DNA of 64,000 bases from positions 29,939-93,938 of the forward strand of contig JAKSLD010000002.1 of the NCBI GenBank assembly GCA_024401395.1, read 5' to 3'. The DNA comes from Bacteroidales bacterium. Lineage in GTDB: Bacteria; Bacteroidota; Bacteroidia; Bacteroidales; Marinilabiliaceae. The stretch's first letter is position 1; each line of letters starts with the position of its first letter. The notes under the pieces are model-generated. The model was not told the origin of the DNA. It was given only the letters and a program-made list of their open reading frames with translations, and did no database searches. The position numbers were made by a program, and so were the translations under genes. Below are positions 23,181 through 44,652 of the stretch, one piece after another.

Positions 23181-23211
23181 TATAATGCGAAGAGGGAGAA
23201 ATGGGATGATG

Positions 23212-28682: not shown

Positions 28683-28693
28683 GGTATAACAAA

Positions 28694-29275
28694 CTATACA
28701 AAAGCTCTGTAGAGATTACAACCAACGAGGTTTCCAATCACTATAGAGATATAAACCACCAAGACAGAAGCCAGATTATCCAGCAGCAAGTCAGGAGAGA
28801 CCATACAATAGTAATAAGCATCTGCTATGCAGTGGGTGAATCCGCAGAGGATGAATACAGGCACACCAAAAAGAAGAGGCAAGAACTGCTGCTTACGGGC
28901 GAATTCCACGGCAGTCGTCATGATAAGGCCACAACCAATACCAAGCAATCCACACTTAAGGGGACCAAGAGACAAACGCTTCTGCAAAATAGCATCAGCC
29001 GTTTTGACTAGATCAGGCTCACAATACCTTACCAACATAGCTGTGACGAAACAACCTAGTATATTAGCCAGCAAAATCACTCCCAAGTTTCCCCAAGAAT
29101 CCCTTGTAACATAACCAGCCGTGCCCGTGTAGAGTTTCAGTTTATAATGCACGACAGCCAACAGGCCGAAAGCAAAAAGGACGGCACCTACGACACCTCC
29201 TACATTCAAAAAGACCGTTCCACCTACACCGATTGCAATACCGGCGAATACTCCTCTACGTATTGTTTCTACCAT
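28694..29275 (-). CDS. Compact formate/nitrite-transporter (FNT)-like channel protein, 193 aa
   Basis: Six short TM segments. FNT-like signatures AVLFAFGLLAVVHYKLKLYTGTAG (compare GLxLVVxxGxELFTGN) and GFTHCIADAYYY (compare GFEHSIANMF). Shorter than canonical FNTs (~260-280 aa). Confidence 0.55.
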   Translation of the reverse strand: MVETIRRGVFAGIAIGVGGTVFLNVGGVVGAVLFAFGLLAVVHYKLKLYTGTAGYVTRDSWGNLGVILLANILGCFVTAMLVRYCEPDLVKTADAILQKRLSLGPLKCGLLGIGCGLIMTTAVEFARKQQFLPLLFGVPVFILCGFTHCIADAYYYCMVSPDLLLDNLASVLVVYISIVIGNLVGCNLYRAFV

Positions 29276-29355
29276 AATTCTATTGGGTTTCGGACAAATG
29301 TAGGAGAATAATCTCTATTCACAAAATTCTTCCTTGACAGATAGTCGGAATACAG

Positions 29356-29474
29356 CTGGAAGTCCCTTGCTAGTATAAGGGAAGTCCCTTGTTCATCGTA
29401 ATTTTTTTATTTTGGAGGCTCGGGCTACACTCGGGCTATACTCGGGGAAGACCCTTGTTCATCGTAAATTTTTT
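29356..29474 (+). repeat. Composite repeat element E1: three GGAAGNCCCTTG-type units around an 11-bp tandem (CTCGGGCTACA / CTCGGGCTATA, about 2.5 copies)
   Basis: Near-identical to the reverse complement of 44337-44465. Unit GGGAAGTCCCTTGTTCATCGTAA(A)TTTTTT at 29379-29408 and 29446-29474. Confidence 0.7.
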
Positions 29475-29651
29475 ATGAAGGCCATGCGGAGAAGAGAGAA
29501 GAAACACAAAATAGTGCGACAAGGAAACAGCAATATCAGGAACGGTGACAAGAAGAGAGCCTATTCAAGTATTTTTTCTGAAAAAAGGAACTTTCGTCTG
29601 ATTTGAAATAGTTAATTTTGACTTGGATATAAAAACTAATGCATAACTAAT

Positions 29652-30503
29652 ATGGGGTACATTCATTGGAATCCTCAAATAGACATTTCTATACTTGGCT
29701 TTTCTATTCGATGGTACGGAATACTATGGGCTGTAGGATTAATTTTTGCGGCCTATATTGTAGGACGTCTTTATAAGGCCAATAAAATAGGAGAGGGGAC
29801 AGCCGACAAACTCTTTATATATTGTATGATAGGCATTTTGGCTGGAGCCAGGCTTGGGCACTGTATATTTTATGATTCAGAATATTTCTTAACCAGTTGG
29901 ACACATTTGATCGAAATGTTTGTTCCTATTCGTTTCATGCCAGATGGAGGAATAACATTTACAGGATATGCGGGATTGGCCTCACATGGAGGAGCCATAG
30001 GTGCATTGATAGCCTTATGGTACTACAGCAAAAAATATAAGATGAAATTCCTATTCGTATTAGACTGCATAGCCATTGCTGCACCTTTTACTGCATTATC
30101 GATAAGATTCGGGAATCTCATAAATTCAGAAATCATCGGATGTCCAACGGATGTGCCATGGGCCTTTATTTTTGAAAGAGTAGATAACATTCCCAGACAT
30201 CCTGCACAACTATATGAAGCCCTTTTCTATTTATTAGTATTTATAACAGGTATAATTATATATCGCAAAACTATACTTCGGAACAGCTTAGGATTGGGGT
30301 TCTTTTTTGGATATTGCATAACAAGTATTTTCACATTTCGATTCTTTATAGAATTCTTAAAAGAAGTACAATCTGATTTCGAAGAATCTCTGCTATTGGA
30401 TATGGGACAGTTGCTATCTATACCATTTATCATTATCGGTATATACTTTATATCCAAATCTCTAAAAGCTGTCAAGGACAAACTGCAAAACCAGAACCTC
30501 TAA
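29652..30503 (+). CDS. lgt: Prolipoprotein diacylglyceryl transferase
   Basis: Lgt signature (YGILWAVG…; GLASHGGAIG). Seven TM helices. Confidence 0.85.
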   Translation: MGYIHWNPQIDISILGFSIRWYGILWAVGLIFAAYIVGRLYKANKIGEGTADKLFIYCMIGILAGARLGHCIFYDSEYFLTSWTHLIEMFVPIRFMPDGGITFTGYAGLASHGGAIGALIALWYYSKKYKMKFLFVLDCIAIAAPFTALSIRFGNLINSEIIGCPTDVPWAFIFERVDNIPRHPAQLYEALFYLLVFITGIIIYRKTILRNSLGLGFFFGYCITSIFTFRFFIEFLKEVQSDFEESLLLDMGQLLSIPFIIIGIYFISKSLKAVKDKLQNQNL

Positions 30504-30545
30504 GTAGATATACACGTCAATGGCATCTCCTTTGGTAGGCCTATA

Positions 30546-30572
30546 GAAGTCCCTTGTTCATCGTAAATTTTT
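30546..30572 (+). repeat. Solo copy of the 30-bp repeat unit (GAAGTCCCTTGTTCATCGTAAATTTTT)
   Basis: Direct orientation relative to the units at 29379 and 29446. Immediately downstream of lgt. Confidence 0.65.
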
Positions 30573-30690
30573 AAAAATACAGGTACGGGGGTAGCTTGAG
30601 GATTTGAGTCGTTTTTACTGTCGAGGTATAGGAAATGAGTAACAATACTACTATATTTGCTATATCATGAACAACTAAATAAACAATACT

Positions 30691-31278
30691 ATGGAGAATA
30701 TTGTTGGATTATATGAAGCGTTAACACCTGAGCTCAAATTCTACTGGGTCATAGCTATCGTTGCCACTTTAGTTTTTGCGATTCAGATGATACTCACATT
30801 TATCGGGATAGGCGATACGGATGTAGATATGGATTTCTCGGGCGGAACGGACGGCAATACGCTTGATACCGGGGGAACCATGCAGTTGTTCAGCGTACGA
30901 AATGTGGTCAATTTCATGCTTGGACTTGGCTGGGGCGGTGTATGCTGGTCATCAGTCATAGGCAATCCCATATTACTAGCTGCGGTTGCTGTTGCCACAG
31001 GCATTCTGTTTGTCATTATTTTCATTTTCCTATTCAAAACTGTCATGAAGCTTGAGAGCAATGGAGCATACAAGATAGAAGATTGTGTAGGCAAGGCGTG
31101 CGATGTGTACCTACGTATTCCTGCTGAGAGAGGCGGGCAAGGCAAGGTGCAGGTAAGCATAGGCGGTGCTGTACATGAGATAGCTGCCGTAACAGATGGG
31201 GAGCAGCTGCCAAGTGGAGCGAAAGTCGTGATACTTAGCCTAATAGACAAGCACACCGTATTAGTCAGTAAAGCGTAA
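30691..31278 (+). CDS. NfeD-family membrane protein (partner of flotillin)
   Basis: N-terminal TM helices plus a C-terminal OB-fold (…VHEIAAVTDGEQLPSGAKVVILS). Immediately upstream of the SPFH gene. Confidence 0.75.
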   Translation: MENIVGLYEALTPELKFYWVIAIVATLVFAIQMILTFIGIGDTDVDMDFSGGTDGNTLDTGGTMQLFSVRNVVNFMLGLGWGGVCWSSVIGNPILLAAVAVATGILFVIIFIFLFKTVMKLESNGAYKIEDCVGKACDVYLRIPAERGGQGKVQVSIGGAVHEIAAVTDGEQLPSGAKVVILSLIDKHTVLVSKA

Positions 31279-31310
31279 ACAGAATTATAAATAATAACAA
31301 CTAAAAAAAG

Positions 31311-32690
31311 ATGATAGAACCTTCATTACTTATTGTAATTGCGGTTGTAGTAGCAGTGCTTATGCTTATTGCGCTCATCAACCGCTATCGTCGCTGTCCT
31401 TCGGATAAGATACTTGTAATCTACGGAACCAGCGGCTCAAAGAAAAGTGCCAAATGTGTACACGGTGGCGGTGCATTTGTCTGGCCGATAATACAAGACT
31501 ACGCATACCTTTCGTTGACACCTATAGGTATTGATGCCAATCTTACCAATGCATTGAGTCGACAGAATATCCGTGTAGACGTACCATGTCGATTCACGGT
31601 AGGTATCTCTACAGAAGAAGAGACCATGGTAGCGGCTGCAGAGCGCTTGCTCGGACAAAGTGCGCAGCAGATTCAGGAACTTGCCAGAGATATTCTCTTC
31701 GGACAGCTTCGTCTGGTTATTGCAACGATGTCCATCGAGGAGTTGAACTCAGACCGAGACAAGTTCCTAGAGGCCATTACAGCCAACGTTGAGGTAGAGC
31801 TCAAAAAGATTGGCTTGAAGCTTATCAACGTAAACGTAACAGATATCAAGGACGAGTCGGGCTATATTGAGGCTCTCGGTCAGGAAGCCGCAGCAAAGGC
31901 AATCAACGAAGCCAAAGTTCGAGTAGCAGAGCAAGAGAAGATAGGTGAAATCGGTAAAGCAGAGGCAGACCGAGAGACACGTATCCGTACAGCAGAGGCA
32001 AACGCACAAGCTGTAAAGGGCGAGAATGAAGCCAAGGTAAATATTGCGCAGTCAGATGCAAGTCGTCGTGAGGCAGAAGCAGAAGCACAACGCAGAGCGT
32101 CGGCAGCAGAAAAAGTAGCGCAAGCCAAGGCACTTGAGGAGGCATACGCAGCAGAGCAGAAAGCAGAAGAGGCGCGTGCGGACAGAGAGCGTTCGACACA
32201 GACAGCCAACGTCATCGTTGCTCAGGAGATTGAGAAGAAGCGACTAGTGCTTGCTGCCGAGGCTACAGCAGAGCAGAAGCGAGTAAATGCCAAAGGTGAG
32301 GCTGATGCTATCTTTGCGAAGATGGAAGCTGAAGGTAAGGGTCTGTATGAGATATTGACAAAGCAGGCACAAGGTTATGACAAGATGATTCAGGCAGCAG
32401 GCGGTGATGCTACAAAGGCATACACATTACTCTTGCTAGAGAAATTGCCAGAACTAGTCAAGACACAGGTTGAGGCTATTAAAGGCATACAGATTGACAA
32501 GATTACTGTTTGGGACAATGGTGGTGCAAACGGCAATGGTCAGACCTCTACAGCCAACTTTCTCTCGGGGCTTATGAAGAGCGTTCCTCCACTTGGAGAA
32601 TTATTCGACCAAGCAGGACTATCGTTACCTGAGTATCTAGCAAAGAAGAAAGAAGAAGAGCAAAAGCCAGATACTCCAACAGAAGGATAA
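31311..32690 (+). CDS. Flotillin-like SPFH (band 7) protein, YqiK/FloA-like
   Basis: N-terminal TM, SPFH domain and a long Ala/Glu-rich coiled coil (EAEAQRRASAAEKVAQAKALEEAYAAEQKAEEA). Confidence 0.85.
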   Translation: MIEPSLLIVIAVVVAVLMLIALINRYRRCPSDKILVIYGTSGSKKSAKCVHGGGAFVWPIIQDYAYLSLTPIGIDANLTNALSRQNIRVDVPCRFTVGISTEEETMVAAAERLLGQSAQQIQELARDILFGQLRLVIATMSIEELNSDRDKFLEAITANVEVELKKIGLKLINVNVTDIKDESGYIEALGQEAAAKAINEAKVRVAEQEKIGEIGKAEADRETRIRTAEANAQAVKGENEAKVNIAQSDASRREAEAEAQRRASAAEKVAQAKALEEAYAAEQKAEEARADRERSTQTANVIVAQEIEKKRLVLAAEATAEQKRVNAKGEADAIFAKMEAEGKGLYEILTKQAQGYDKMIQAAGGDATKAYTLLLLEKLPELVKTQVEAIKGIQIDKITVWDNGGANGNGQTSTANFLSGLMKSVPPLGELFDQAGLSLPEYLAKKKEEEQKPDTPTEG

Positions 32691-32712
32691 ATAAGAAACG
32701 AATACAAACGAA

Positions 32713-32753
32713 AGAGGCTGTGTCAAGATGAAGACACAGCCTCTTTTTTTTTC
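32713..32753 (+). terminator. Strong rho-independent terminator (AGAGGCTGTGTC-AAGATGAA-GACACAGCCTCT then T9)
   Basis: 12-bp perfect stem followed by nine T residues, right after the flotillin stop. Confidence 0.7.
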
Positions 32754-32780
32754 ATAATATTTTTTGGACTTTGTGCCACT

Positions 32781-33290
32781 TCAATACTCAGCAACGGGAT
32801 TTGACAAGAATTGTGTGTTTTCTTTTTTGTAAAAGCATTGAAGAAAATACATCAGCTGCATTCCTTCGTTTGATTGCATTTCTATCGAAAAGCATATGTT
32901 ATTACTCATGTTAAAGAGTAATATATATTCTTTGCTTCTACAAATCACAATATTCTCTACTACATTACTATTATGCTGCTTCATTTTACAATAAATCACC
33001 CCCTTTCCAAATTTTCCATTTCTAAATGTGCTTTGCTTTGCATTTTTTATAGCGGTGGCAATAAGATTCTTTTCATGTGTATTTAAATGATGCAAATCTT
33101 CTACGGTTATTTGGGTCAAGTAATTTTTTGTACTAACAAACGTATTGCCTGTAGCAGATAGTGTTTGGCTTATGTATACATCTGAAATATTATCCAGATT
33201 TATGACGTTATTAGTTGACGAACAACTTATGAATAACAAGCAAAACAAGAATACATGGAGTGAAAAGGAAAGACGTGTTATCTTTTTCAT
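32781..33290 (-). CDS. Hypothetical lipoprotein in a locally AT-rich segment
   Basis: Lipobox …LLFISCSS. No recognisable domain. The surrounding ~600 bp are much more AT-rich than the neighbouring genes. Confidence 0.4.
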   Translation of the reverse strand: MKKITRLSFSLHVFLFCLLFISCSSTNNVINLDNISDVYISQTLSATGNTFVSTKNYLTQITVEDLHHLNTHEKNLIATAIKNAKQSTFRNGKFGKGVIYCKMKQHNSNVVENIVICRSKEYILLFNMSNNICFSIEMQSNEGMQLMYFLQCFYKKENTQFLSNPVAEY

Positions 33291-33410
33291 ACGACACTAA
33301 TTATAAGAGAGAAAGTAAAAGATTCTAATGGTGCAAATGCGACAAATATATTGACAAATGCAACTTATCAGTATAATATTTTCAGAGGCAGACAAGAATT
33401 TCTCTTGGTA

Positions 33411-33448
33411 TAAAAAACAGAGGGCGTGTCGATCTTGACACACCCTCT
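33411..33448 (-). terminator. Rho-independent terminator for the minus-strand GH31 gene
   Basis: Stem AGAGGGCGTGTC / GACACACCCTCT (one mismatch) with an A-run on the plus strand, which reads as a T-run on the minus strand. Confidence 0.5.
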
Positions 33449-33488
33449 TTGTAGCATATCAATGTCTTCTTTTGCGTGGATAGCTATA

Positions 33489-35744
33489 TCAATATGTTGT
33501 TTCCTTAACCTTAGACCAATCAATCTTATCAGTTGATTGAGCTACTGGCACATGCTTGAGTTTAGTACCCTTCTGTACCATGAGGACGATAGGTATTTCG
33601 CCGACTTGAACTTCATTCCATCCTGGGTTATAAGTCTTACCAGTCTGGTAGTCGACCCACTTAGTCTTACCAGGGAGATATACAGTACGACTAGAACCCT
33701 CCTCAAACATAGGAGCCACGAGAATCTTGCTACCGAACATATACTGATCCTCTACTAACCAAGCGCCTGGATCGTCTGGGAATTCGAGCAAGAGAGCACG
33801 CATCATAGGGAGACCCTTCTCTGTACAAAGTTTAGCCTCGTCTACGATATAAGGCATCAACTTATACTTCATTTCAGCCACCTTACGGAAGTAATCCACG
33901 AAATCCTTATTGTAGAGCCATGGTTCGGTAGGAGGAGCACCGTGAACGCGAGAATGAGAAGTGAACATACCGAAAGGCAACCATCTTCGGTACAATCCCT
34001 CTGGGCATGACTGAACGAAGCCGCCTATATCGTGGCTCCAGAAAGAGAAGCCCGAGAGGCCGAATGAGAGACCACCGTGTAGAGTCGAGAGCATCGCTGC
34101 ATTAGTATTAGCTGCATCGCCCCCCCAATGAAGAGGGTAACGTTGAGAACCAGCCCAAGCAGAACGAGACCAGATGATACCATCACCGGTAGTTGCCTTA
34201 GTTATTTCGTAGACAGCCTTATCATAGCGAACAGTATAGATATTATGCTCGTACAGGCCAGTTCTACCAGAAGCATACAAGCCGTTAGTCACAGGAGACG
34301 CCTCACCGAAATCCACTTTAATAGCGCCGACACCCAACTTGAGCAAGCCAGCCAATTTATTCTGGTACCACTTAACAGTCTCCTTGTTAGTGAAATCCAG
34401 TACGACATCCTCATAAGGGAGCGAGCCATTAGCATTCTTAACATACATACCCTTGTCAACCAACTCCTTAAAATAGGTATTCTTTGGGGTAAAATATGGA
34501 AGTTGCCACAAAGAGATATGGAAGCCCTGCTCCTTCAGATCCTTGACCATCTTGGCAGGGTCAGAGAAACGATCCTCAGCAAACTTATAGTCGCACTGCC
34601 AATCGATACCGAACCAGCCAGTATCGAAATGGATTACGTCAGATGGGATTCTATTGTCGCGCAACTGCTTAGCTATTTCGTAGCCCTCCTCCTGAGAGAA
34701 ATAAGTGATACGGCTCATCCAAGTACCGAAAGACCATAGAGGTGGCATTTCAGGTTTACCCACCAAGTTGGTATACTCATCAAGAATCTCCTTAGGAGAA
34801 CCGAGCATTACGAACATATCCAAGTTCTCATCGGCCATAAAAAGTTTCTGAGTACCTATATAAGTAGCGCCGAAATCGGCAGTTACAGGTGCAGAAGTAT
34901 GGAGAAATACGCCATAACCCTTATTAGACATATAGAAAGGGACAGGCTTATACATCATATCAGTCTCAGGGCCCTGAGGGTCGGTCACGAACATATTAAT
35001 TTTCTGACCCACCTTATTGAGAGCAGTAAACGACTCACCGCAACCATATATTCTCTCGTTAGGTGCGAGAGAAAGCATAGGAGCGATGCTGCGAGAGTTA
35101 TCTGCGCCACGCTTGATGAAACAGAAAGGAAGAGACTTAACCTGTGTGGTGTCATTATCAAGGAGGTGACGCGTCTGTTGGATAATATTACCCTTAGCAT
35201 CCTTGATTACTATACGCCAAGGGTGGCGGTAGATAGAGATAGTACCATACTTAGAAGTGTACTTAACCTGATCCTTAGTTGCGATATGACTCCAAGCAGA
35301 ACTTGTCGGAACATCGCCAGCCAACATCACCTCCTCAGCTGCAGGCACGTCGGGGTGGATATTAGACGTATACATACGGATACGGAACGTACGTTCAGTC
35401 ACGAAATCGATCTTGAAATCCAGTTCAGGATCATTATCGTATGCTGGAGTAGGGAAATCGAGCATATCTAGGCGGACAGGCCATGAGCCATTAGTATTGA
35501 AAGCCTGACGAGGCTCAAGAGAGTATCTACTCCATTTGATTTTACCCTCGCCCTTTGTTGCATCGAAATCAGAAAGAGAGTCGGCGAAGAAATACGTATT
35601 TGCGAAATTCCCGAAATCGGCAGAGACATCTATGGGCTGACTCAACAGTAGGTTCGGGCCAGTAGTCTGGTGATACTGAGCTGAAATAGGGGCTATTGAA
35701 AGCATAGTTGCAGCCAGTAGCGATGGAAAAAAATAGTGTGACAT
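33489..35744 (-). CDS. Glycoside hydrolase family 31 (alpha-glucosidase / alpha-xylosidase-like)
   Basis: Signal peptide. GH31 catalytic-region motifs IHFDTGWF (the hxDxxW nucleophile region) and GAIKVDFGE (the K/V-DFGE acid/base region). 751 aa. Confidence 0.8.
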   Translation of the reverse strand: MSHYFFPSLLAATMLSIAPISAQYHQTTGPNLLLSQPIDVSADFGNFANTYFFADSLSDFDATKGEGKIKWSRYSLEPRQAFNTNGSWPVRLDMLDFPTPAYDNDPELDFKIDFVTERTFRIRMYTSNIHPDVPAAEEVMLAGDVPTSSAWSHIATKDQVKYTSKYGTISIYRHPWRIVIKDAKGNIIQQTRHLLDNDTTQVKSLPFCFIKRGADNSRSIAPMLSLAPNERIYGCGESFTALNKVGQKINMFVTDPQGPETDMMYKPVPFYMSNKGYGVFLHTSAPVTADFGATYIGTQKLFMADENLDMFVMLGSPKEILDEYTNLVGKPEMPPLWSFGTWMSRITYFSQEEGYEIAKQLRDNRIPSDVIHFDTGWFGIDWQCDYKFAEDRFSDPAKMVKDLKEQGFHISLWQLPYFTPKNTYFKELVDKGMYVKNANGSLPYEDVVLDFTNKETVKWYQNKLAGLLKLGVGAIKVDFGEASPVTNGLYASGRTGLYEHNIYTVRYDKAVYEITKATTGDGIIWSRSAWAGSQRYPLHWGGDAANTNAAMLSTLHGGLSFGLSGFSFWSHDIGGFVQSCPEGLYRRWLPFGMFTSHSRVHGAPPTEPWLYNKDFVDYFRKVAEMKYKLMPYIVDEAKLCTEKGLPMMRALLLEFPDDPGAWLVEDQYMFGSKILVAPMFEEGSSRTVYLPGKTKWVDYQTGKTYNPGWNEVQVGEIPIVLMVQKGTKLKHVPVAQSTDKIDWSKVKETTY

Positions 35745-35837
35745 AGTAAATATTAATATTTATTTGTCAAAGGTAGTAATATTTCAATAAAAGCACACAT
35801 TTGAGGGAGAAAAGAGGCCATGGAAAGATAGCGTGAG

Positions 35838-35853
35838 GTATAAGGGAGCGTTA
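35838..35853 (+). repeat. Copy of the dispersed motif (GTATAAGGGAGCGTTA), followed by a short TGCGTATATG tandem
   Basis: Related to 7943-7977, 44507-44545 and 60624-60645. Confidence 0.4.
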
Positions 35854-35960
35854 TGGGTGCGTATATGATGCGTATATGGTGCGTTAAGGTTGCTCGTAAT
35901 TTTTTATTTTATGAAGAGAAAAGAGAGTTATCTTTGCGAGAAGAAATACTCGTTAGAATT

Positions 35961-37136
35961 ATGACATATCAAGATATAAAAGAGTACGCTGAGAGCGTGT
36001 TTGAGTATGTACGTGGAGTGCGCAGGGATTTACACAGGCACCCTGAGTTGGCATTTCATGAAGAGTGGACATCGGGATATGTAGAGAAAGAGCTGCAAAA
36101 GATGGGGATAGCATACGTCAAAGGCTTTGCGGAGTATGGCATCAGAGGAATCATTGAATCGGGGAAAGACGGAGAGACTATAGTATTGAGGGCAGATATG
36201 GATGCGCTGCCGATAGAGGAAGACGAGAGACACGAGATAAAATCGGAAATCAAGGGAGCAATGCACGCTTGCGGTCATGATATGCACACAGCTACCCTAC
36301 TTGGCGTGGCAAAGATACTTATGGAGACAAGAGAGCAATGGCAAGGAAAAGTTGTGCTATTATTCCAGCCTAGCGAAGAAGTGTGGCCTGGGGGAGCGAT
36401 AAGAATGCTGAATGACGGAGTGCTAGATGGGTATACGCCAAAGATTGTGATGGCAAATCATGTGATGCCAGATTTAGAAGTAGGGAAAGTTGGGTTTCAT
36501 GGTGGCACATATATGGCATCGGGAGATGAGATACACATCAGGATAAAAGGGCATGGCGGTCATGGTGGCGTTCCACATCTGCTTACGGACACAGTATTGA
36601 CTGGAGCCCAGATACTTGTGGCATTGCAGGAACTAGTAGCCAGAGAAGTACCTGCGAACATACCTACAGTATTGTCATTCGGCAGATTTGAGGCATTAGG
36701 AGCTACCAATATCATACCAGACGACGTGTATCTTGCAGGAACACTTCGCACTATGTCTGAAGAGTGGAGGGGAAGAATGAAGGCAAGAATAAGAGAAGTC
36801 GTGTCGGCACTGTCCACAGCATTCCGCGTAGAGACAAGCATAGACATAAAAGACGGGTTCCCATCGGTATACAACAATCCAGAATTAACAGAACAAGTAC
36901 GACAAACAGCCATATCAGCTATAGGACAAGAGAATGTTGTCAATATGGAGGTGCGCACAACAGCAGAAGATTTCGGGTATTATACACAGAGATACCCTTC
37001 GGTATATTACAGATTTGGCGTAGGAGAGAGTGGAAATGTGCATACGGCGCAGTTTGACCCAGACGAGGAGTCGCTCAAGACATCAGTAGCTGTGATGGTT
37101 GCCGCAGTAATGGATATGTGCAAAAGCAAGAATTAA
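35961..37136 (+). CDS. M20D-family amidohydrolase (N-acyl-L-amino-acid amidohydrolase / hippurate hydrolase-like)
   Basis: MHACGHD metal-binding motif and M20 dimerisation domain. Start set at the ATG at 35961 (MTYQDIKEYAE…). Confidence 0.75.
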   Translation: MTYQDIKEYAESVFEYVRGVRRDLHRHPELAFHEEWTSGYVEKELQKMGIAYVKGFAEYGIRGIIESGKDGETIVLRADMDALPIEEDERHEIKSEIKGAMHACGHDMHTATLLGVAKILMETREQWQGKVVLLFQPSEEVWPGGAIRMLNDGVLDGYTPKIVMANHVMPDLEVGKVGFHGGTYMASGDEIHIRIKGHGGHGGVPHLLTDTVLTGAQILVALQELVAREVPANIPTVLSFGRFEALGATNIIPDDVYLAGTLRTMSEEWRGRMKARIREVVSALSTAFRVETSIDIKDGFPSVYNNPELTEQVRQTAISAIGQENVVNMEVRTTAEDFGYYTQRYPSVYYRFGVGESGNVHTAQFDPDEESLKTSVAVMVAAVMDMCKSKN

Positions 37137-37684
37137 AGAGACATATACCAGACCACACCTATAGCGACCAAAGCCAAGCTATATGCAATGAGGCCTAAAA
37201 TACTATTAAGGACAATCGTCCTACGAGTCACCAGATGGTCGTAGACAGTCGCTCTGCTATCGAAGTTCAGTATATGATAATGTTCCCTTATCATTGAAGC
37301 AGCCTCTTCATCCTCGTTTTTTATATGAGCCAGAAGAAGATGCTTCTGAACGGCACGTTCCTTACGATCGTGACATATACTGACGACCATTAATATGACA
37401 GCGACAATACCTGTACAGAGAATTCCGGAAGTCACACTCACGAAATAGCCCAGCAGGAAAATAACGGGAACAGCTACGCAACTCAGCATAATAAACTCCC
37501 TGACGGCATCCAAACGCAAATCCAGACTTGCATCCCAATATAAACGACGGTACTCTTCTGGTATTGGAATATTATTCTCACGATTCTTGATATCCATCAA
37601 GAACTCCGTCTGGGATGGCATTTTGTTCTTCTGAGTCCTGCTACTGACGAAGGAAAGCAAGTTGACAGGATGATACTTTCCCAT
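37133..37684 (-). CDS. Hypothetical two-TM membrane protein downstream of an NfeD-like gene
   Basis: No recognisable domain. Two hydrophobic segments. Confidence 0.35.
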   Translation of the reverse strand: MGKYHPVNLLSFVSSRTQKNKMPSQTEFLMDIKNRENNIPIPEEYRRLYWDASLDLRLDAVREFIMLSCVAVPVIFLLGYFVSVTSGILCTGIVAVILMVVSICHDRKERAVQKHLLLAHIKNEDEEAASMIREHYHILNFDSRATVYDHLVTRRTIVLNSILGLIAYSLALVAIGVVWYMSL

Positions 37685-37685
37685 A

Positions 37686-38147
37686 TTAAGCCTTTTCTAC
37701 AAGGATAGTATTATTGTCCAACGAGACAACCTTAACTTCCGTACCTTGGTCTATGAAAGCTGTAGCCTTTACCTCCAGATAGCCATATTTATCGAACTTA
37801 GCCTTTCCGAAAAGGTTAAGACGAGTTGCTGCTATACCTGTATCGCCTACGGCTATGGTAGTTGGCTGTTCATTTACCTGAGAATCTATCTTAGAATCAA
37901 GACTTAGCTTTTTACGTATAGCTGAATTCCACAACAATGCACACAGGAGAATGAGAACAAGTACTACTCCTGCCACTACACAGAGAGCGACGGCTGTTCC
38001 ATATTCTTGATTAGCCAGATATGCAGCTCCAATTACAGATGCAGTTCCCACAATTCCTGCGATACCGATACCAGGAATCAATAATATTTCTGCGAGGAGA
38101 CAAAACAGACCTATTATGGACAATAAAACAATTAAAGCGGTTGTCAT
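37686..38147 (-). CDS. NfeD-like membrane protein (short form with C-terminal OB fold)
   Basis: TM helices plus a C-terminal beta-rich OB-like region (IAVGDTGIAATRLNLFGKAKFDKYGYLEVKATAFIDQGTEVKVV). Confidence 0.55.
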   Translation of the reverse strand: MTTALIVLLSIIGLFCLLAEILLIPGIGIAGIVGTASVIGAAYLANQEYGTAVALCVVAGVVLVLILLCALLWNSAIRKKLSLDSKIDSQVNEQPTTIAVGDTGIAATRLNLFGKAKFDKYGYLEVKATAFIDQGTEVKVVSLDNNTILVEKA

Positions 38148-38195
38148 TTTTCTAGTTGTTATTAATGCTATTGCAAAGGTAATAATATTATTTAC

Positions 38196-38504
38196 TCATA
38201 CAAGAACTATCTCAGAAATAAAGACAACCACACAACATATCACAGCAACCTGGAATAGATTTGCGCCCTTCCAGGCTGAGAACATACCGATGATGAACGC
38301 CAACAACCCCGCTATGGGAGACTGTGTGGCTTCGACTATAGCCGGGAACGTCATCACAGATAAAGTCACGTATGGGACATAATATAGGAATGAAGTAATG
38401 AATTCATTCTTTATCTGTTTTCGCAGCAAAGTCATAGGTATCACCCTTATTAGGTATGTGACCCCTATCATTATTGCCATATATATGTATACGTTATGTG
38501 TCAT
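38196..38504 (-). CDS. azlD: Branched-chain amino acid exporter small subunit AzlD
   Basis: ~100-aa protein with three TM helices immediately after azlC. Confidence 0.7.
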   Translation of the reverse strand: MTHNVYIYMAIMIGVTYLIRVIPMTLLRKQIKNEFITSFLYYVPYVTLSVMTFPAIVEATQSPIAGLLAFIIGMFSAWKGANLFQVAVICCVVVFISEIVLV

Positions 38505-39223
38505 ACCTCTTCCTCCTCTGTAGTTTTATGTGGAAACAATAGAGCTGCGACAGATGAAATGATGACCGTCAGAATAATGATGCGCGTTCCTCCCGACAAA
38601 TCTGAGACATATGGGAGATAATTAGCAGCCAGACTCATCGCGAAACTGATAGACACGAGCCAGAACAACACCTTGTTCTCCTTTGCCGGTGGAATAATAA
38701 TTGCGATGAACATACCATATAGAGCTACACTCAGGGCACTTACGATATTCTTTGGCAATATATCTCCTGCTATACACCCGAATGCGGTTCCGCTAGCCCA
38801 GAAAATGGCAGGCAATATAGCAGCGCCGTAAGAGTACCAAGGATTTAAGGATCCCTTTCTGGCTATGGCTATAGCAAACAGTTCATCCGTCAGGTCCAAA
38901 GCCATTACAAATCTATGGATTACAGGGGTCTTGGCTGAGATACGCTGACTCCAGGCGGCACTCATCAGCAGGTAACGAGCATTGGCGATAAATGTCATCA
39001 ACGCCACCTCGGTATATGTCGCCTGAGCCGCTATAAGAGAAAACCCGATATATTCACCTGCAGAAGCCATACAGAAGAAACTTGTCCAGAAACCCTGACC
39101 TGCTGTCAGTCCTGCATTGACTGCTATGATACCTAAAGAAAAGGATACGGCGAGGTAGCCCAAAGCTATCGGGATTGAATCTCGCATTCCTTCGCGAAAG
39201 GCTGTTTTATTGGTCTGTAGCAT
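38501..39223 (-). CDS. azlC: Branched-chain amino acid exporter AzlC
   Basis: AzlC family polytopic membrane protein (…DSIPIALGYLAVSFSLGI…). Confidence 0.8.
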   Translation of the reverse strand: MLQTNKTAFREGMRDSIPIALGYLAVSFSLGIIAVNAGLTAGQGFWTSFFCMASAGEYIGFSLIAAQATYTEVALMTFIANARYLLMSAAWSQRISAKTPVIHRFVMALDLTDELFAIAIARKGSLNPWYSYGAAILPAIFWASGTAFGCIAGDILPKNIVSALSVALYGMFIAIIIPPAKENKVLFWLVSISFAMSLAANYLPYVSDLSGGTRIIILTVIISSVAALLFPHKTTEEEEV

Positions 39224-39442
39224 TGTCTATTCTAATAGTAATGCAAAGTTAGAGATTAAATTGTTAAAAAGTATTTAATAATCGATACAATATAAGGCAG
39301 GGTAAACAGACCTCTTTTCAAACAAATTGAGATTATTTCTGATTTTGAGCGAACAAAGGGAAGAAAAATCGTGTTTTGTCGGTCGCTCAATAAAAAAAAT
39401 GCCTCATTTAATCCGAAAAATAACAATTACAAGGCTCACTGA

Positions 39443-39512
39443 TATATTTGCTTACACATTAAAACATTTTATCTTTGTTAACTTGCAGATTAAAAGCAAA
39501 TAAGTACCTTTG
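39443..39512 (+). promoter_or_regulatory. Three Bacteroides-type -7 promoter motifs (TATATTTG, TATCTTTG, TACCTTTG) in the leader of the ATP-grasp cluster. A 10-bp-stem hairpin lies upstream at 39345-39390
   Basis: Matches to the TAnnTTTG consensus of the Bacteroides primary sigma factor at 39443, 39470 and 39505. Confidence 0.4.
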
Positions 39513-39532
39513 CATTAAACCTATTACCAATA

Positions 39533-40879
39533 GTGTCGGATTTAATTAGAATTGTGTGTATGTATAGTCTACTATTAAAACAAACAGATGCAGTGAATAG
39601 ATGGATGGAGCGATATGGTGTTCGCTTCGGCATCTATAAGAACGGAGAGTTCAAGGAACAATTGTTCCCCTTTGACGCTATTCCACGTATTATCAGTCAC
39701 GAAGACTGGAAGATGCTGGAGGTCGGACTCATCCAGCGAGTTGATGCGCTTAACGCTTTCCTGAGAGACATATATACAGAGAAGCGTATTGTAAAAGACG
39801 GTATCGTTCCAGAGGATTTCATCTACTCTTCCAAGGGGTATCTCCCTCAGTGTGAGGGTTTCATCCCTCCAAAGGGCATTTACTCTCATATATCGGGCAT
39901 CGATTTGGTTCAGGCAGAGGATGGCACATGGTATATCCTGGAGGATAACCTCAGAATACCATCTGGCGCATCATACCCAATGATTGCCAGAGACCTGACA
40001 CGTAAGGTTTCTCCTGAGACTTTTACTGATTCGTCTCTCATAGACAACCGTAATTATGCTCAGCTCCTCAGGGATTCAATGGATTATGTGAATGTCGACA
40101 ATGGTCTGGAGGTTATCCTTACCCCAGGCAGATACAATTCCGCATATTTCGAGCATTCTTATTTGGCTGAGAAGGCTCGCGTGGTATTGGCCTACCCAGA
40201 TGACCTTTTCGTGGATAATGGATATGTCTACTACAGGGGACTGAATAACAAGAGCGAACGAGTGGGTGTCATATATCGCCGTATTTCGGATGAATATCTA
40301 GACCCTATGACATTCGAGCCAACGTCGCTGCTTGGCGTGCCTAATCTGTTCGAAGCCTACCGTCAAGGAAATGTAGCAATATTCAACGCCTTTGGAAATG
40401 GTGTTGCCGATGACAAGGGTATATACTATTTCGTCCCAAAGATGATTAAGTATTATCTCAATGAGGAGCCTATACTGAAGAATGCACCTACATATCTCCC
40501 TATATATGAGGAGGATCGCAAATATGTATTGGACAACCTGGAAAAACTGGTCCTCAAGGATGTTTCTGAAGCTGGAGGATATGGCGTAATGTTCGGCCGC
40601 GATATGTCGCCTGAGAAACTGGCTGAGATGAAGCACCTCATCAAGACTGAATCTCGCCGCTGGATTGCTCAGGAGATTATCAATTTCATCGACTTGGATA
40701 TCATCGACAATGGCGAGAAGGTGAAGAGGAAAGCCGACCTCAGAGCGTTTGTTCTCTCGGGGGAGACAACAAGGGTTTGGGCAAGTGGTCTCACTCGTTT
40801 CACACGCAACGAAAAATCTTTCATCGTCAACTCTTCTCAGGGTGGCGGTTTCAAAGATACTTGGGTTCTTGATAAATAA
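39533..40879 (+). CDS. Circularly permuted ATP-grasp type 2 protein (predicted amidoligase)
   Basis: Conserved blocks NG..Y.…P.D.IPRIIS..EW..LE.GL.QR…LN.FL.D.Y and WYILEDN.R.PSG.SY match, by eye, the CP-ATP-grasp family (homologs of mycobacterial Rv2411c). The track start at 39533 is a GTG; the first ATGs are at 39560 and 39605. Confidence 0.75.
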   Translation: MSDLIRIVCMYSLLLKQTDAVNRWMERYGVRFGIYKNGEFKEQLFPFDAIPRIISHEDWKMLEVGLIQRVDALNAFLRDIYTEKRIVKDGIVPEDFIYSSKGYLPQCEGFIPPKGIYSHISGIDLVQAEDGTWYILEDNLRIPSGASYPMIARDLTRKVSPETFTDSSLIDNRNYAQLLRDSMDYVNVDNGLEVILTPGRYNSAYFEHSYLAEKARVVLAYPDDLFVDNGYVYYRGLNNKSERVGVIYRRISDEYLDPMTFEPTSLLGVPNLFEAYRQGNVAIFNAFGNGVADDKGIYYFVPKMIKYYLNEEPILKNAPTYLPIYEEDRKYVLDNLEKLVLKDVSEAGGYGVMFGRDMSPEKLAEMKHLIKTESRRWIAQEIINFIDLDIIDNGEKVKRKADLRAFVLSGETTRVWASGLTRFTRNEKSFIVNSSQGGGFKDTWVLDK

Positions 40880-40905
40880 GAAATAACGCATAACAATATA
40901 ATATT

Positions 40906-41583
40906 ATGACTTACAATATTGCAATATCTCCAGCTAAGGCTAGCCGCCTCTATTGGTTGGGCCGTTACTCAGAACGTGTTTGTTCTACCCTCCATATGCT
41001 CCATAAGTGCTATGACGAGGTCGTAGATAATGAGCATACAGACGTACATTCTGATTTCTGCGTACGTATGGGTATCCCTTTTGAATATGACAACGCAAGA
41101 CAGTTCTTGAAGAATTACCTCTACAACAAAGAGAAGACATACTCTGTCATCAATATGCTCGAGCGTGTTAAGGATAATGCAATTCTCTTGAGAGAGGAAC
41201 TTAAAAGTGAATCCCTCGCTTACGTCGAAATGGCTATCAACTATATGAACCAGGCTTCTATGGATGAAAGCCGCCTCTATGACTTGCAGCCTGTAACAGA
41301 CTACTTGTTCGCTTTCTTCGGTGCTATCGAGGAGCGTATTTTCAATATGGATGCACTCAACCTTATCTTGATTGGCAAATATGTCGAGAAATCGGAATTA
41401 TATATCCGATTCGACTATGACCTCGCGCGTATCGATGAGTCTCTATGCCGACTCGAGCATTTTGTCAATGTGGAAGTCGGTTTGTGCGACGACCGCAAGA
41501 TGTCTGCAGTAAGGAATGGCATTAATGAGATGCCTATGTCTGCATCTATCATCGACAACCTCAACACAATATTTGCGGCCTGA
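40906..41583 (+). CDS. Alpha-E domain protein (DUF403), the usual partner of CP-ATP-grasp
   Basis: All-alpha protein beginning …ASRLYWLGRYSER, which is the N-terminal signature of alpha-E domains. Confidence 0.7.
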   Translation: MTYNIAISPAKASRLYWLGRYSERVCSTLHMLHKCYDEVVDNEHTDVHSDFCVRMGIPFEYDNARQFLKNYLYNKEKTYSVINMLERVKDNAILLREELKSESLAYVEMAINYMNQASMDESRLYDLQPVTDYLFAFFGAIEERIFNMDALNLILIGKYVEKSELYIRFDYDLARIDESLCRLEHFVNVEVGLCDDRKMSAVRNGINEMPMSASIIDNLNTIFAA

Positions 41584-41586
41584 TAT

Positions 41587-42390
41587 ATGGTACTCAAGTA
41601 TAGCCATATTACTGTGATCACGTTTTCTTCGCTCATCCATGCTCACAGTTTCAGTATGCGTTGCTCTCCTTTTCAGAACAGCAACCAGCGTATCATCGAG
41701 GAGAATGTCTCGGCTATCCCTCATTGTAATATAGCTAGGAATACTGATTCTATGGGCAACACAGTCGATTATGGGTATATTGAGGACTATCACGATTCTT
41801 TCGCTTTTGAAAGTCGTGGCATCATCTCTATCAGTTCGCACATATCTAAGGAAAGCAACAACCCCCTATTCTTCTATGCGACGCCCCTCACCAGCCCTTC
41901 TTCGGATCTAATATATCTTGCTCATCTGTTAGACGCTAGGGCTGGTGAGGAGGTTTTCATTCGCCAGGCATCGGATCTCATCCATAAGCATGTCCAGTAT
42001 GTTTCTGGAAGCACGGATGTCTGCACTTCCGCAGAAGCTGCTTTCGCACAGGGCAAAGGGGTTTGCCAGGATTTTGCTCATATAGCTATATGCCTATGCC
42101 GCCTGTGTGGCATTTCTGCTAGATATGTCAATGGATATATGCTTGGCGAGGGTCAGACTCACGCTTGGGTGGAGTATTTCATTCCGTCTATCTCTGAATG
42201 GCATGCCTACGACCCGACTAACAACAGGGTGGTAGATGACTCTTATATCAAACTGGCCCAGGGCAGAGATTATAATGATTGTCGCACTAATCACGGGGTT
42301 TTCAGAGGCGATGTCAGTCAGACTATGCATGTCAGGCTCTCTGTGCAAGAGGTCCTGAATGGTAATTATTTATATAGCAATGTAATATGA
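41587..42390 (+). CDS. Transglutaminase-like cysteine protease superfamily protein with a Bact_transglu_N-like N-terminus
   Basis: Cys-His-Asp catalytic signature: GKGVCQDFAHI (Cys), THAWVEYF (His), WHAYDPTN (Asp). Confidence 0.8.
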   Translation: MVLKYSHITVITFSSLIHAHSFSMRCSPFQNSNQRIIEENVSAIPHCNIARNTDSMGNTVDYGYIEDYHDSFAFESRGIISISSHISKESNNPLFFYATPLTSPSSDLIYLAHLLDARAGEEVFIRQASDLIHKHVQYVSGSTDVCTSAEAAFAQGKGVCQDFAHIAICLCRLCGISARYVNGYMLGEGQTHAWVEYFIPSISEWHAYDPTNNRVVDDSYIKLAQGRDYNDCRTNHGVFRGDVSQTMHVRLSVQEVLNGNYLYSNVI

Positions 42391-43310
42391 TACAAACCGT
42401 AATATCAGAGAATCTCCCAGTAGATGAGCGTCTTATCATCAAAAAGAACTCTATAGGCAATAAGGATGGTAAGCGTGTGTGTATCGTCACAGGTATTCAC
42501 GGAGATGAACTCGAAGGTCAGTACGTCTGTTATGAACTGATGAGACGTCTGAAGAAGGAGAGCCACCAGCTCAAGGGGCGCGTTGAGATATACCCTGCCT
42601 TGAATCCTCTTGGCGTGGACTCTGTCACAAGGGCTATTCCTACTTTCGACCTGGATATGAACCGAATCTTCCCTGGTAATCCTGATGGACATATGATTGA
42701 GTATGTGGCTCATAGAATTATCGAGGACCTTGCCGGAGCCGATCTTGTCATTGATATCCATTCTTCTAATGTCTATTTGTACGAGATTCCTCAGGCTCGC
42801 ATCAGTAAGACTTTCTCTGACAAACTGATGCCTATAGCGGAAATGCTTAACCTCGATTTTATCTGGGTACACGATGCTGCAACGGTACTGGAATCTACCA
42901 TCGCCCATTCTCTCAATTCTATCGGAACCCCGACAGTGGTAGTCGAGATGGGTATCGGTATGAAGATTACTAAGGAGTATGGCGACCGTCTGGTGGATGG
43001 CATCATAAATATGCTCGATAAGTTCGGTATGTGGGGTGGCAATCTCCCGGTACGTATCAAGCAGCCTATCATATCCACAGTTGGCGATGTCTGTTTTATC
43101 AATGCTAACTACTCTGGCGTAATCATTAACCCTATGCCGCACTCTTCTCGCGTATGCAAGGGGGATGTCCTATGCCAGATCGTAAGTTCTCTCACTGGCG
43201 AAGTGCTCGAAAACGTGGAAGCTCCTGTCGATGGCTTGCTTTTTACTATGCGAAGCTATCCTATAGTCTATGAAGGGTCTCTGCTCGCCCGAATTTTCTA
43301 CAAACAATAA
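42387..43310 (+). CDS. AstE/AspA (succinylglutamate desuccinylase / aspartoacylase, M14-like) zinc hydrolase
   Basis: Zinc-ligand motifs are intact: VTGIHGDELEG (HxxE), NRIFPG, VIDIHSS (His), VVEMG (catalytic Glu). ATGA overlap with the transglutaminase gene. Confidence 0.8.
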   Translation: MIQTVISENLPVDERLIIKKNSIGNKDGKRVCIVTGIHGDELEGQYVCYELMRRLKKESHQLKGRVEIYPALNPLGVDSVTRAIPTFDLDMNRIFPGNPDGHMIEYVAHRIIEDLAGADLVIDIHSSNVYLYEIPQARISKTFSDKLMPIAEMLNLDFIWVHDAATVLESTIAHSLNSIGTPTVVVEMGIGMKITKEYGDRLVDGIINMLDKFGMWGGNLPVRIKQPIISTVGDVCFINANYSGVIINPMPHSSRVCKGDVLCQIVSSLTGEVLENVEAPVDGLLFTMRSYPIVYEGSLLARIFYKQ

Positions 43311-43324
43311 GTGCGACTAAGGAA

Positions 43325-44257
43325 ATGAAACAATGTGATATTTTTACAATGAAATCACCTTTTAGAGATGACTATCGCATACCTGGGTTCTATTTCGGCA
43401 ATGGAGACAAGACGGTAGCTATCATCGGCGCTATGCGAGGCAACGAGGTGCAGCAACTTTTCGTCTGCTCTCAGTTGGTCAAGAACCTCCTTGCTCTTGA
43501 GGGTGAAGGCAAGATTAATCCAAACGTAGGCATCCTTGTCATTCCTACCGTCAATCCTTATTCTCTGAATATCCATAAGCGCTTTTGGGCTATGGATAAC
43601 ACAGATATCAACCGTATGTTCCCTGGATATGACCAGGGCGAAACAACTCAGAGAATAGCTGCCGCTCTTTTCGAGACCGTGAGGGGCTACGAATATGGTA
43701 TCCAGCTCTCTAGCTATTACCTCAATGGTAATTTCGTGCCTCACGTCAGGGTGATGGATACTGGCTACCAGGACCTGGAGAGTGCTAAGAGCTTCGGATT
43801 GCCTTTTATATATGAGTACGAACCGAAACCTTATGACACAACTCTGCTCAACTATAACTGGCAGATTTTCGATACTAAGGCGTTTAGCATATACAGCGGC
43901 TCTACTGATGTCATCAATAAGGACCTCGCAAAACAAACGTGGCTCAGCATATTGCGTTTCCTTCACGCTAAGGGTATAATCGATAAGCCTATGCACGGCG
44001 GTATGGTGCCTTTCAAATTCAGAAACGAGATGTTGAGCACTGTCGTCTCTCGCCAATCTGGTATCTTGTACCCTAAATGCGATGTCGCTCAGAATGTCAA
44101 GAAGGGCGACTTGCTGGCCGAGGTTTTGTCTCCTTATATGGGCGAGACAATAGATTCTATCTACTCGCCTGTCACAGGTACGGTATTCTTCGCCCACCAT
44201 ACCCCACTTATCCATCAACATTCAAGAATTTTCCAAATCGTAGAATATCCGGAATAA
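43325..44257 (+). CDS. Second AstE/AspA-family paralog with degenerate metal-binding residues (likely non-catalytic)
   Basis: Same fold and spacing (IIGAMRGNEVQQ, NRMFPG). HGDE is replaced by RGNE, and the DIHSS position reads QLSSY, so both His zinc ligands are absent. Confidence 0.7.
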   Translation: MKQCDIFTMKSPFRDDYRIPGFYFGNGDKTVAIIGAMRGNEVQQLFVCSQLVKNLLALEGEGKINPNVGILVIPTVNPYSLNIHKRFWAMDNTDINRMFPGYDQGETTQRIAAALFETVRGYEYGIQLSSYYLNGNFVPHVRVMDTGYQDLESAKSFGLPFIYEYEPKPYDTTLLNYNWQIFDTKAFSIYSGSTDVINKDLAKQTWLSILRFLHAKGIIDKPMHGGMVPFKFRNEMLSTVVSRQSGILYPKCDVAQNVKKGDLLAEVLSPYMGETIDSIYSPVTGTVFFAHHTPLIHQHSRIFQIVEYPE

Positions 44258-44336
44258 TACACCCAGGCACTGAATATAATACTAGATGAGAAGGCTGTGC
44301 CGCGTGAGTGGTCCAGCCTTATTTTTTGCTGGTTTA

Positions 44337-44465
44337 TCAAAAAATTACGATGAACAAGGGTCTTCCCCGAGTGTAGACCGAGTATAGACCGAGTGTAGAC
44401 CGAGTCCCCAAAATAAAAAAATTACGATGAACAAGGTACTTCCCTATGACTAGAAAGGGTCTAGT
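44337..44465 (-). repeat. Composite repeat element E2, an inverted copy of E1 with three copies of the 11-bp tandem GAGTGTAGACC / GAGTATAGACC
   Basis: The reverse complement aligns along its full length with 29356-29474. The only length difference is the 11-bp tandem copy number (3 versus about 2). Confidence 0.7.
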
Positions 44466-44506: not shown

Positions 44507-44545
44507 TTAACGCTCTCTTATACCTCCCTTAATGCTCCCTTATAC
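44507..44545 (-). repeat. Two degenerate tandem copies of the dispersed motif (TTAACGCTCTCTTATAC, CTTAATGCTCCCTTATAC)
   Basis: Reverse complement of the GTATAAGAGAGCGTTAA family seen at 7943, 35838 and 60624. Confidence 0.45.
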
Positions 44546-44644
44546 CAGACAATGGATATGTACTATTTTTTCATTATATAATACTAAACCGACAAACCTC
44601 TCTTTATTGGGTCTCAACGCTTGGATATAAGATTCTTTATTGAA

Positions 44645-44652
44645 TATATTTG
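44645..44652 (+). promoter_or_regulatory. Candidate Bacteroides -7 promoter element TATATTTG, 29 bp upstream of manA
   Basis: Perfect match to TAnnTTTG. No clear -33 TTTG. Confidence 0.3.

Follow-up and report, generated by a model that had tools for sequence, protein, structure and literature searches.

The window analysed here, a 64,000-nucleotide (nt) stretch of contig JAKSLD010000002.1 from the Bacteroidales bacterium assembly GCA_024401395.1, contains two inverted copies of a composite intergenic repeat, E1 and E2. These belong to a repeat family that occurs at several loci in this species and, in two further Bacteroidales species, at loci unrelated to these. Between strains, the internal arrays gain and lose 11-nt copies, and a module consisting of an array plus a core (77 nt; 66 nt in E1) is gained and lost with its breakpoint within two direct cores. 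The elements themselves keep their positions from strain to strain. We lean, with modest confidence, towards reading E1 and E2 as a lineage-restricted, non-coding, non-autonomous mosaic intergenic repeat whose core is probably the recognition site of a DNA-binding protein.

E1 (29358-29476, + strand) and E2 (44338-44465, − strand) are inverted copies of one composite, 88-89% identical. Reading of the sequence gave the same order of parts in both: unit0 or a unit0-like segment, unit1, a tandem of 11-mers, and unit2. A repeat search of the window recovered two pairs of inverted arms, 29361-29445/44378-44462 (85 nt, 88%) and 29419-29479/44333-44393 (61 nt, 89%); the longest unbroken identities between E1 and E2 are 29 and 28 nt. 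Unit1 consists of GGGAAG-N2-CCTTGTTCATCGTAA, a T-tract and ATTTTGG. Units end in a T-run of 6-8 nt, and unit0 is a partial duplicate of unit1 spanning 21-22 nt. The composite keeps an 11-nt register throughout, such that the spacing of the units is 66 nt (6 × 11) in E1 and 77 nt (7 × 11) in E2. The parts of the two elements, with the array next to E2, are as follows. Arrays were called using Tandem Repeats Finder (TRF).

29358-29378, + strand: E1 unit0 (GGAAGTCCCTTGCTAGTATAA), a partial copy (21 nt) of unit1's 5' part
29379-29416, + strand: E1 unit1, comprising GGGAAGTCCC, the invariant core CCCTTGTTCATCGTAA, the T-tract and ATTTTGG (nhmmer, E = 2e-10)
29419-29446, + strand: E1 11-nt array CTCGGGCTAYA (CTCGGGCTACA), 2.5 copies (TRF); contig L005 has one copy fewer
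29445-29476, + strand: E1 unit2 (GGGAAGACCCTTGTTCATCGTAAATTTTTT; core search and nhmmer)
44338-44368, − strand: E2 unit2 (core search and nhmmer)
44367-44405, − strand: E2 11-nt array, CTCGGTCTAYA on the − strand, 3.5 copies (TRF)
44408-44444, − strand: E2 unit1 (core search and nhmmer)
44446-44465, − strand: E2 unit0-like segment (CTAGACCCTTTCTAGTCATA; sequence reading)
44508-44546, − strand: 11-nt array of the TAAGGGAG type, 5' of E2 and in the same orientation and 11-nt register as E2 (TRF)

The first-pass annotation had described two copies with this architecture at these sites, E2 being inverted relative to E1 and each containing an 11-mer tandem. The sequence reading, the inverted arms and the TRF arrays agree with that description. 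It had also placed a unit0 in both copies; the segment is indeed present in each, but its conservation between E1 and E2 is only loose.

Further members of the family were found in the window and next to it. The core CCCTTGTTCATCGTAATTTTT matched the window five times at ≤3 mismatches (29386+, 29452+, 30551+, 44340− and 44417−) versus 0.00 matches expected from 100 shuffles, and an nhmmer profile picked out six units, five of them strong and one decayed. Another unit, diverged in sequence, occupies the aspS-GH3 spacer approximately 2.2 kb to the left of the window (contig L154, 3766-3785; also in L155-L157). The members and related modules outside E1 and E2 are the following.

30528-30573, + strand: single element, a unit0-like prefix plus a unit, between lgt and an nfeD-like gene; stable in three other strains
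23131-23183, + strand: decayed copy of unit0 and unit1 within a segmental duplication of the 5' part of a formate/nitrite transporter (FNT)-family gene (nhmmer, E = 0.003; 82% identical to 29246-29410)
35858-35910, + strand: related module upstream of the M20 gene, comprising an 11-nt variable-number tandem repeat (VNTR), TGCGTATATGR, and the variant core GGTTGCTCGTAATTTTTTATTTT
7941-7985, + strand: 11-nt array of TTAAGAGAGCG without a core
60602-60665, − strand: 11-nt arrays without a core, including a 24-nt perfect inverted match to 7941-7964

The earlier description had listed solo units at 30546-30572 and, in degenerate form, at 23130-23180. The first is present, but carries a unit0-like prefix as well. 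At the second there is a decayed copy, but not an independent one, as it sits inside the FNT segmental duplication. That description had also weighed a repeat family against a local duplication, and the further copies at other loci of this species and in other species show it to be a family.

Copies in other species were sought by scanning a genome collection with the 16-mer core, a query so short that nearly all of the approximately 100 matches were due to chance. The only true copies were in L063 and L088, loci of two metagenome-assembled genomes (MAGs) of Bacteroidales from horse faeces (JAKSLE01 and JAKSLC01). L063 has two copies and L088 one intact copy, each made up of a 10-11-mer tandem, the core and a purine-rich stretch. 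In a second L088 element (395-450), the core has decayed and the array equals that of E1 exactly over 30 nt. These copies adjoin unrelated genes (AraC/ArsP, DUF3990 and prs/gldB). Nucleotide matches between these loci and the window are confined to pieces of the element, at 100% over 20-30 nt, and include the array GGCTACACTCGGGCTATACTCGGGGAAGAC. 11-mers of the TAAGGGAG type precede cores both upstream of the M20 gene and in L088.

The 16-nt core is identical in every intact copy, across strains and three species, and its flanks differ. From this pattern, and from the decay of copies at places that would be under less constraint (23152, beside a pseudogene fragment, and L088:395-450), we take the core to be most likely a site recognised by a protein.

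The family is narrow in host range yet dispersed: the metagenome, viral, plasmid and phage collections yielded no genuine copy, and the nearest relatives identified by Lgt have none around lgt. Specifically, a metagenome scan using a 21-mer gave no match, and one using a 20-mer with one degenerate position gave 14 matches, all attributable to chance, as were the eight matches of a viral scan. The chance matches in the metagenome and viral scans had neither the GGGAAG prefix nor the purine-rich tail. Plasmid and phage collections gave no match by blastn. Among relatives, the identity of Lgt falls from 99% to ≤69%, with Prevotella at about 57-61%; thus, no close relative has been sequenced. Separately, the WLWD01 contigs L126, L129 and L137 carry an unrelated multi-copy repeat that shares the 19-mer CTTGTTCATCGTAATTTTT by chance and stands beside a G-rich hairpin (GGGGGCTGAGGGGGCCAGCCCCC). 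We considered and rejected a multi-copy gene start as the source of the WLWD01 matches: it spans only 17 codons and belongs to the unrelated repeat.

The behaviour of the elements was evaluated by comparing conspecific contigs (L001-L008, L109-L123 and L153-L176), which cover 62.5 kb of the window. All eight short-read contigs bearing lgt terminate within or right beside E1. In this uncultured gut lineage, the family causes short-read assemblies to break. The E1 array has one or two full copies among strains. In L002, a unit1-type 5' end is joined to the right flank of unit2, as would be seen with an allele of one unit. The E2 site has a short allele in four independent contigs (among them L109, L112 and L113), exactly 77 nt shorter than the long allele of the others; the missing module is the E2 array plus unit2, and the junction lies inside the two direct cores. 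E1-type 11-mers occur at E2 in L121. The M20 array has one, two or three copies among otherwise identical strains, and the array at 7946 has lost a copy in L158. Thus, lengths vary by multiples of 11 nt at E1, E2, M20 and 7946, as expected of the slippage-prone VNTR core proposed in the first-pass annotation, and these four arrays offer VNTR markers for strain typing in metagenomes. Only the interior of the elements changes: every strain contig sampled has an element at the sites of E1, E2 and the solo copy.

In non-coding DNA, the same comparison yielded indels of 1 nt (eight events), 2 nt (two), 11 nt (five) and 77 nt (one); all those exceeding 2 nt have lengths divisible by 11. Indels in coding DNA were multiples of 3 in a gene with CAG repeats, plus a few events of 1-4 nt.

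7866, 7962, 29433, 35868/35872 and 44339: sites of indels that are multiples of 11 nt

Period-11 tandems number five in the 64 kb of the window, against none of period 10 or 12. In a background of 98 unrelated bacterial loci (710 kb), there were 9 tandems of period 11, 21 of period 10 and 13 of period 12. Period-11 tandems are therefore approximately 6-fold enriched over this background; relatives with 64% Lgt identity have none in 29.5 kb. In L155, a single-copy 11-mer at 7866 has been duplicated de novo with no core adjoining it, from which we argue that the process is general to the intergenic DNA of the lineage. This 11-nt indel signature is the most unusual aspect of the system; the repeat itself is fairly ordinary. 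The step equals one helical turn. It may stem from selection for helical phasing in intergenic DNA, with whole turns being favoured in supercoiled DNA, or from a particular mutational mechanism of fixed length.

The same data invite a neutral account, in which the lineage is biased towards 11-nt tandem duplication, arrays are thereby scattered through intergenic DNA, and E1 and E2 represent a duplicated piece of such DNA with no site-specific function. Enrichment of period 11 over background, the occurrence of 11-nt indels and arrays away from any core (at 7866, 7946 and 60642), and the existence of decayed copies speak for it. However, such a bias leaves unexplained how a core of 16-30 nt and a 30-nt array segment came to be identical at non-homologous loci in three species whose surroundings cannot be aligned, and we regard the account as unlikely. 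We give a low probability, slightly lower still, to a more specific proposal: that a sequence-independent process in this lineage duplicates exactly 11 nt in non-coding DNA and so seeds VNTRs, with the protein responsible recognising, or loading at, the CCCTTGTTCATCGTAA-T(n) core. Candidate routes would be a nuclease, integrase or transposase that cuts with a fixed 11-nt stagger, followed by fill-in, or mis-processing of a lagging-strand flap of primer length. If this were true, core and arrays would together mark a DNA transaction that has yet to be described, as opposed to being a passive repeat.

Under the interpretation of a mosaic repeat with a protein-binding core, replication slippage and unequal recombination between direct cores would account for the changes in length, and the copies would be kept alike by gene conversion, selection or both. 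Any action of the element would be exerted at the level of DNA and not of RNA or protein. The core CCCTTGTTCATCGTAA with its T-tract (approximately 30 nt) is a candidate protein site of an architectural, regulatory or recombination-related kind, around which indels of whole helical turns (11 nt) may persist.

Several points weigh against this interpretation. The step from a conserved core to a protein site is drawn from sequence, and the core could be identical because it spread recently or underwent gene conversion, with no function involved. The distances from unit to next promoter (137, 77 and 14 nt) are neither constant nor phased. The nearest Lgt relatives (64-69%) have no units and no synteny around lgt in approximately 100 kb, much of it redundant between samples. 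Finally, the copies counted in this species come from about 70 kb of its sequence.

The first-pass annotation had labelled the elements as dispersed intergenic repeats resembling MITEs (miniature inverted-repeat transposable elements) or REPs (repetitive extragenic palindromes). They are indeed dispersed, intergenic and non-autonomous, with a slippage-prone 11-nt core. The two labels, however, are not supported: there are no terminal inverted repeats (TIRs), target duplications or palindromic stem-loops, and the units are direct. Specifically, the search for TIRs within E1, E2 and the solo copy returned only trivial or weak pairs, inspection of the sequence revealed no flanking direct repeats at any copy, and the core contains no palindrome. 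No RAYT (IS200/IS605-like Y1 transposase) was seen in the annotated neighbourhood, in which no search was aimed at RAYT. Pfam annotation of conspecific contigs found no transposase in the segment between E1 and E2, nor was there one in the annotated parts of the window, so that the earlier statement that a transposase is missing holds for that segment.

An origin as a MITE or as a set of solo insertion sequence (IS) ends mobilised in trans, with the 11-nt tandems as target-duplication footprints of repeated insertion and excision, would suit elements that are small, intergenic, multi-copy and devoid of a transposase. The unit starts with GGAAG...CCCTTG, a sequence bearing some likeness to the ends of the IS5 family, for example GAGACCTTTGCA of BrickBuilt/ISPg1; E1 and E2 turn their outer GGAAG ends towards each other in the manner of TIRs; and the fixed-length tandems of differing sequence, together with the de novo duplication at 7866, resemble fixed-stagger footprints. 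Nevertheless, we consider this origin quite unlikely given the direct units, the lack of TIRs within any element and the lack of target duplications at any copy. A search for the BrickBuilt/IS5 TIR allowing ≤2 mismatches yielded four matches, against a chance expectation of 5.1, and each of them lies far from the elements. Moreover, the same positions are occupied in all sampled strains, with internal modules alone varying and no pair of filled and empty sites, the 7866 duplication adjoins no core, and the 15-kb segment between E1 and E2 holds housekeeping genes.

With respect to neighbouring genes, E1 lies between the short FNT-family gene (28694-29275, −) and lgt (29652-30503, +), and E2 between an M14-family peptidase gene (43325-44257, +) and a mannose-6-phosphate isomerase (PMI) gene (44681-45652, +). 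The −7 box of Bacteroidetes-type promoters has the consensus TAnnTTTG. One such box was predicted per flanking gene, 20-32 nt before the start codon.

29295-29302, − strand: predicted −7 box of the FNT-family gene (TACATTTG, with TTTG 19 nt upstream); E1 is upstream
29613-29620, + strand: predicted −7 box of lgt (TAATTTTG); E1 is 137 nt upstream
44290-44330, + strand: terminator-like hairpin and T-run of the M14 gene, directly before E2 (from sequence reading; the consensus scan did not flag it)
44645-44652, + strand: predicted −7 box of the PMI gene (TATATTTG); E2 is upstream

Since they stand upstream of these boxes, E1 and E2 appear to lie outside the predicted transcription units. The orientation of the units relative to neighbouring genes is mixed. 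In the unit's own forward orientation, three copies follow a co-directional stop and four a divergent start; on the downstream side, four copies lead to a co-directional start and three to the end of a convergent gene. The idea of a replication fork trap, suggested by the left units all being on the + strand and the right units on the − strand, was dropped: the GC skew follows the gene strand with no signal of a terminus, and the orientation data are too few. A contig break in the PMI-MoxR spacer of GCA_045640305.1 was also discarded as a copy, being an assembly gap of approximately 22 nt and not a repeat.

We also evaluated whether the unit might act as RNA, as the end of a small RNA, a terminator or a cis-regulatory leader. 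The terminal T-run of 6-8 nt is suggestive in this respect, as are the CTCGGG repeats, which are able to pair through G-U wobble on the + strand, and three copies (the lgt solo copy, L063a and L063b) lie 40-90 nt after a co-directional stop that has no other predicted terminator. However, no stable hairpin precedes the T-run, and scans for sigma-70-type promoter and terminator consensus sequences found nothing at the elements. RNA folding was no better than that of shuffled sequences on either strand (z-scores of −1.1 to +1.5). Rfam gave no match at the gathering score anywhere in the window, with only noise at E ≤ 10. As four of the seven copies face away from the upstream gene, three enter a convergent gene end, and E1 sits between predicted divergent promoters, an RNA-level role is very unlikely. 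By eye, there was no consistent match inside the unit to Bacteroidetes −33/−7, sigma-54 or extracytoplasmic function (ECF)-type motifs. A small protein or leader peptide starting at the reverse-strand ATG AAC AAG was likewise rejected, the open reading frames (ORFs) being 6-29 codons long and not conserved.

The first-pass annotation had further proposed that the pair could mediate inversion of the 15-kb segment by homologous recombination. The data do not support this. All four contigs or contig pairs that cross E2 (L109/L116, L112, L113 and L117) keep the order M14 gene, E2, PMI gene, and the consecutive accessions of an NCBI MAG from MCQ2214504 (lgt) to MCQ2214519 (PMI) follow the order of the window, although rare events may occur. 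The reversed orientation was not found in the four E2-crossing contigs or the one NCBI assembly, a small sample in which no contig crosses E1. A single Logan contig (L002/L110; 14.2 kb) runs precisely from E1 to E2, with a break inside the units at either end; that assembly graph therefore leaves the orientation open.

It is extremely unlikely that the E1/E2 pair is a functional substrate for inverting the lgt-to-M14 segment by homologous or site-specific recombination. The inverted arrangement of two approximately 120-nt copies at 88-89% identity, the open orientation of L002/L110 and the E1-type 11-mers at E2 in L121, which imply that the sites exchange sequence or share a polymorphism, are compatible with such a role. 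The longest perfect matches between E1 and E2, 29 and 28 nt, are close to the lower limit for RecA-dependent exchange and, together with the single orientation seen, leave inversion unsupported. No recombinase domain was present in the Pfam annotations of about 1-22, 23-46 and 46-64 kb, in which not every ORF was scanned, and the other copies are solo or in direct orientation. We infer that the inverted arrangement is incidental to having two copies 15 kb apart and that there is no dedicated inversion switch.

Several side observations concern the neighbouring sequence. The FNT-family gene has undergone a segmental duplication of approximately 330 nt (22851-23183 versus 28685-29410, including the upstream region). 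The duplicate is a 62-aa fragment (22860-23048) with an internal deletion of 393 nt, whose 3' end is kept at 93% and whose 5' end and promoter region are kept at 82%. The two FNT copies bracket a cluster encoding ccsA/ResB-like, di-haem oxidoreductase and imelysin proteins, and contig L153 breaks at the duplication. The diverged aspS-GH3 unit, ACTTGTTCATCGCAATTTTT(T)(T)GTTGG, lies between the canonical hairpin terminators of both genes and differs slightly in sequence among strains. Site 11301 (TAAGCTTGCTCGCAATTTTTTATT) was rejected as a copy because it is a chance match within a coding region. The window also contains a second short intergenic repeat family of 11-mers.

7941-7985 (+), 35838-35850 (+), 44508-44546 (−) and 60624-60650 (−): 11-mers of the TAAG(A/G)GAGCGT type

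The first and last of these sites share the 24-nt perfect inverted match noted above (7941-7964 versus 60624-60647). Similar 11-mers precede the core in the horse-gut MAG L088 (5487-5530), and the Logan contigs L156 and L157 end within the 7946 array. Elsewhere, a CAG/CAA glutamine-rich repeat (51261-51396) in a TPR-domain gene (50808-51515) of a BatA-BatD-like, aerotolerance-type operon differs in length among strains, with eight in-frame variants of 3, 6 or 9 nt. Finally, an ORF of 169 aa (32781-33290, −) with no Pfam match lies between terminator-like hairpins at 32711-32749 and 33412-33450. The window, L001 and L003 carry it; L002 and L109 instead have, in the region 32690-33490, a spacer of approximately 85 nt and a single hairpin. 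The gene is thus strain-variable.

With known systems, the comparison is one of analogy: in architecture and behaviour, the element is analogous to STAR, BOX, bacterial interspersed mosaic elements (BIMEs) and BrickBuilt, and homologous to none of them. Invertons, the phase-variable segments of Bacteroidales that invert between inverted repeats, are typically a few hundred bp long, with a promoter inside and an associated site-specific recombinase. Here, too, a segment of a Bacteroidales genome is bounded by a pair of inverted repeats, but that segment comprises 15 kb of housekeeping genes, a recombinase was not seen and one orientation was observed. A gene-regulatory inversion system does not appear to be present.

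BOX elements of Streptococcus pneumoniae and BIMEs of E. coli are mosaic intergenic repeats built from a few module types with a variable middle module; they are palindromic or form stable stem-loops and are largely transcribed. The element described here is similarly a mosaic of few module types in which the number of middle modules varies. In contrast to BOX and BIMEs, it has no significant fold and appears to lie outside predicted transcription units.

BrickBuilt of Porphyromonas gingivalis is a MITE/minisatellite with approximately 19 copies per genome, intergenic, species-restricted and in some cases partial; it has a 23-nt repeat, leader and tail segments of 285-318 nt, and IS5-type TIRs GAGACCTTTGCA (PMC4596501). 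The likeness lies in the host order, Bacteroidales, in the intergenic location and in flanking segments that surround an internal tandem of variable copy number. The repeat here is 11 nt, however, the flanking units are direct and 30 nt long, and no such TIR occurs at the elements.

STAR of Staphylococcus aureus consists of interspersed intergenic direct repeats with a 14-nt GC-rich core and no TIRs or transposase, and its function was never established (PMC3532100). No sequence similarity to STAR exists: the consensus T(G/A/T)TGTTG(G/T)GGCCC(C/A) had no match in the window at ≤2 mismatches, and the hosts belong to different phyla. The core here is also longer, approximately 30 nt with an A/T tail, and its spacers are 11-nt arrays, with the element in an 11-nt register. 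The likeness is one of kind. Both systems have a short core in direct orientation with recurring spacers, are intergenic at several loci, and lack TIRs and a transposase. Both expand and contract from strain to strain at fixed positions, and their loci differ between related species. Both marks of a STAR-like element, taken as a kind and not as homology, were thus found here, including absence from the lgt locus of relatives. With this element, the direct-repeat intergenic class exemplified by STAR, which is still little understood, gains a representative from the Bacteroidales.

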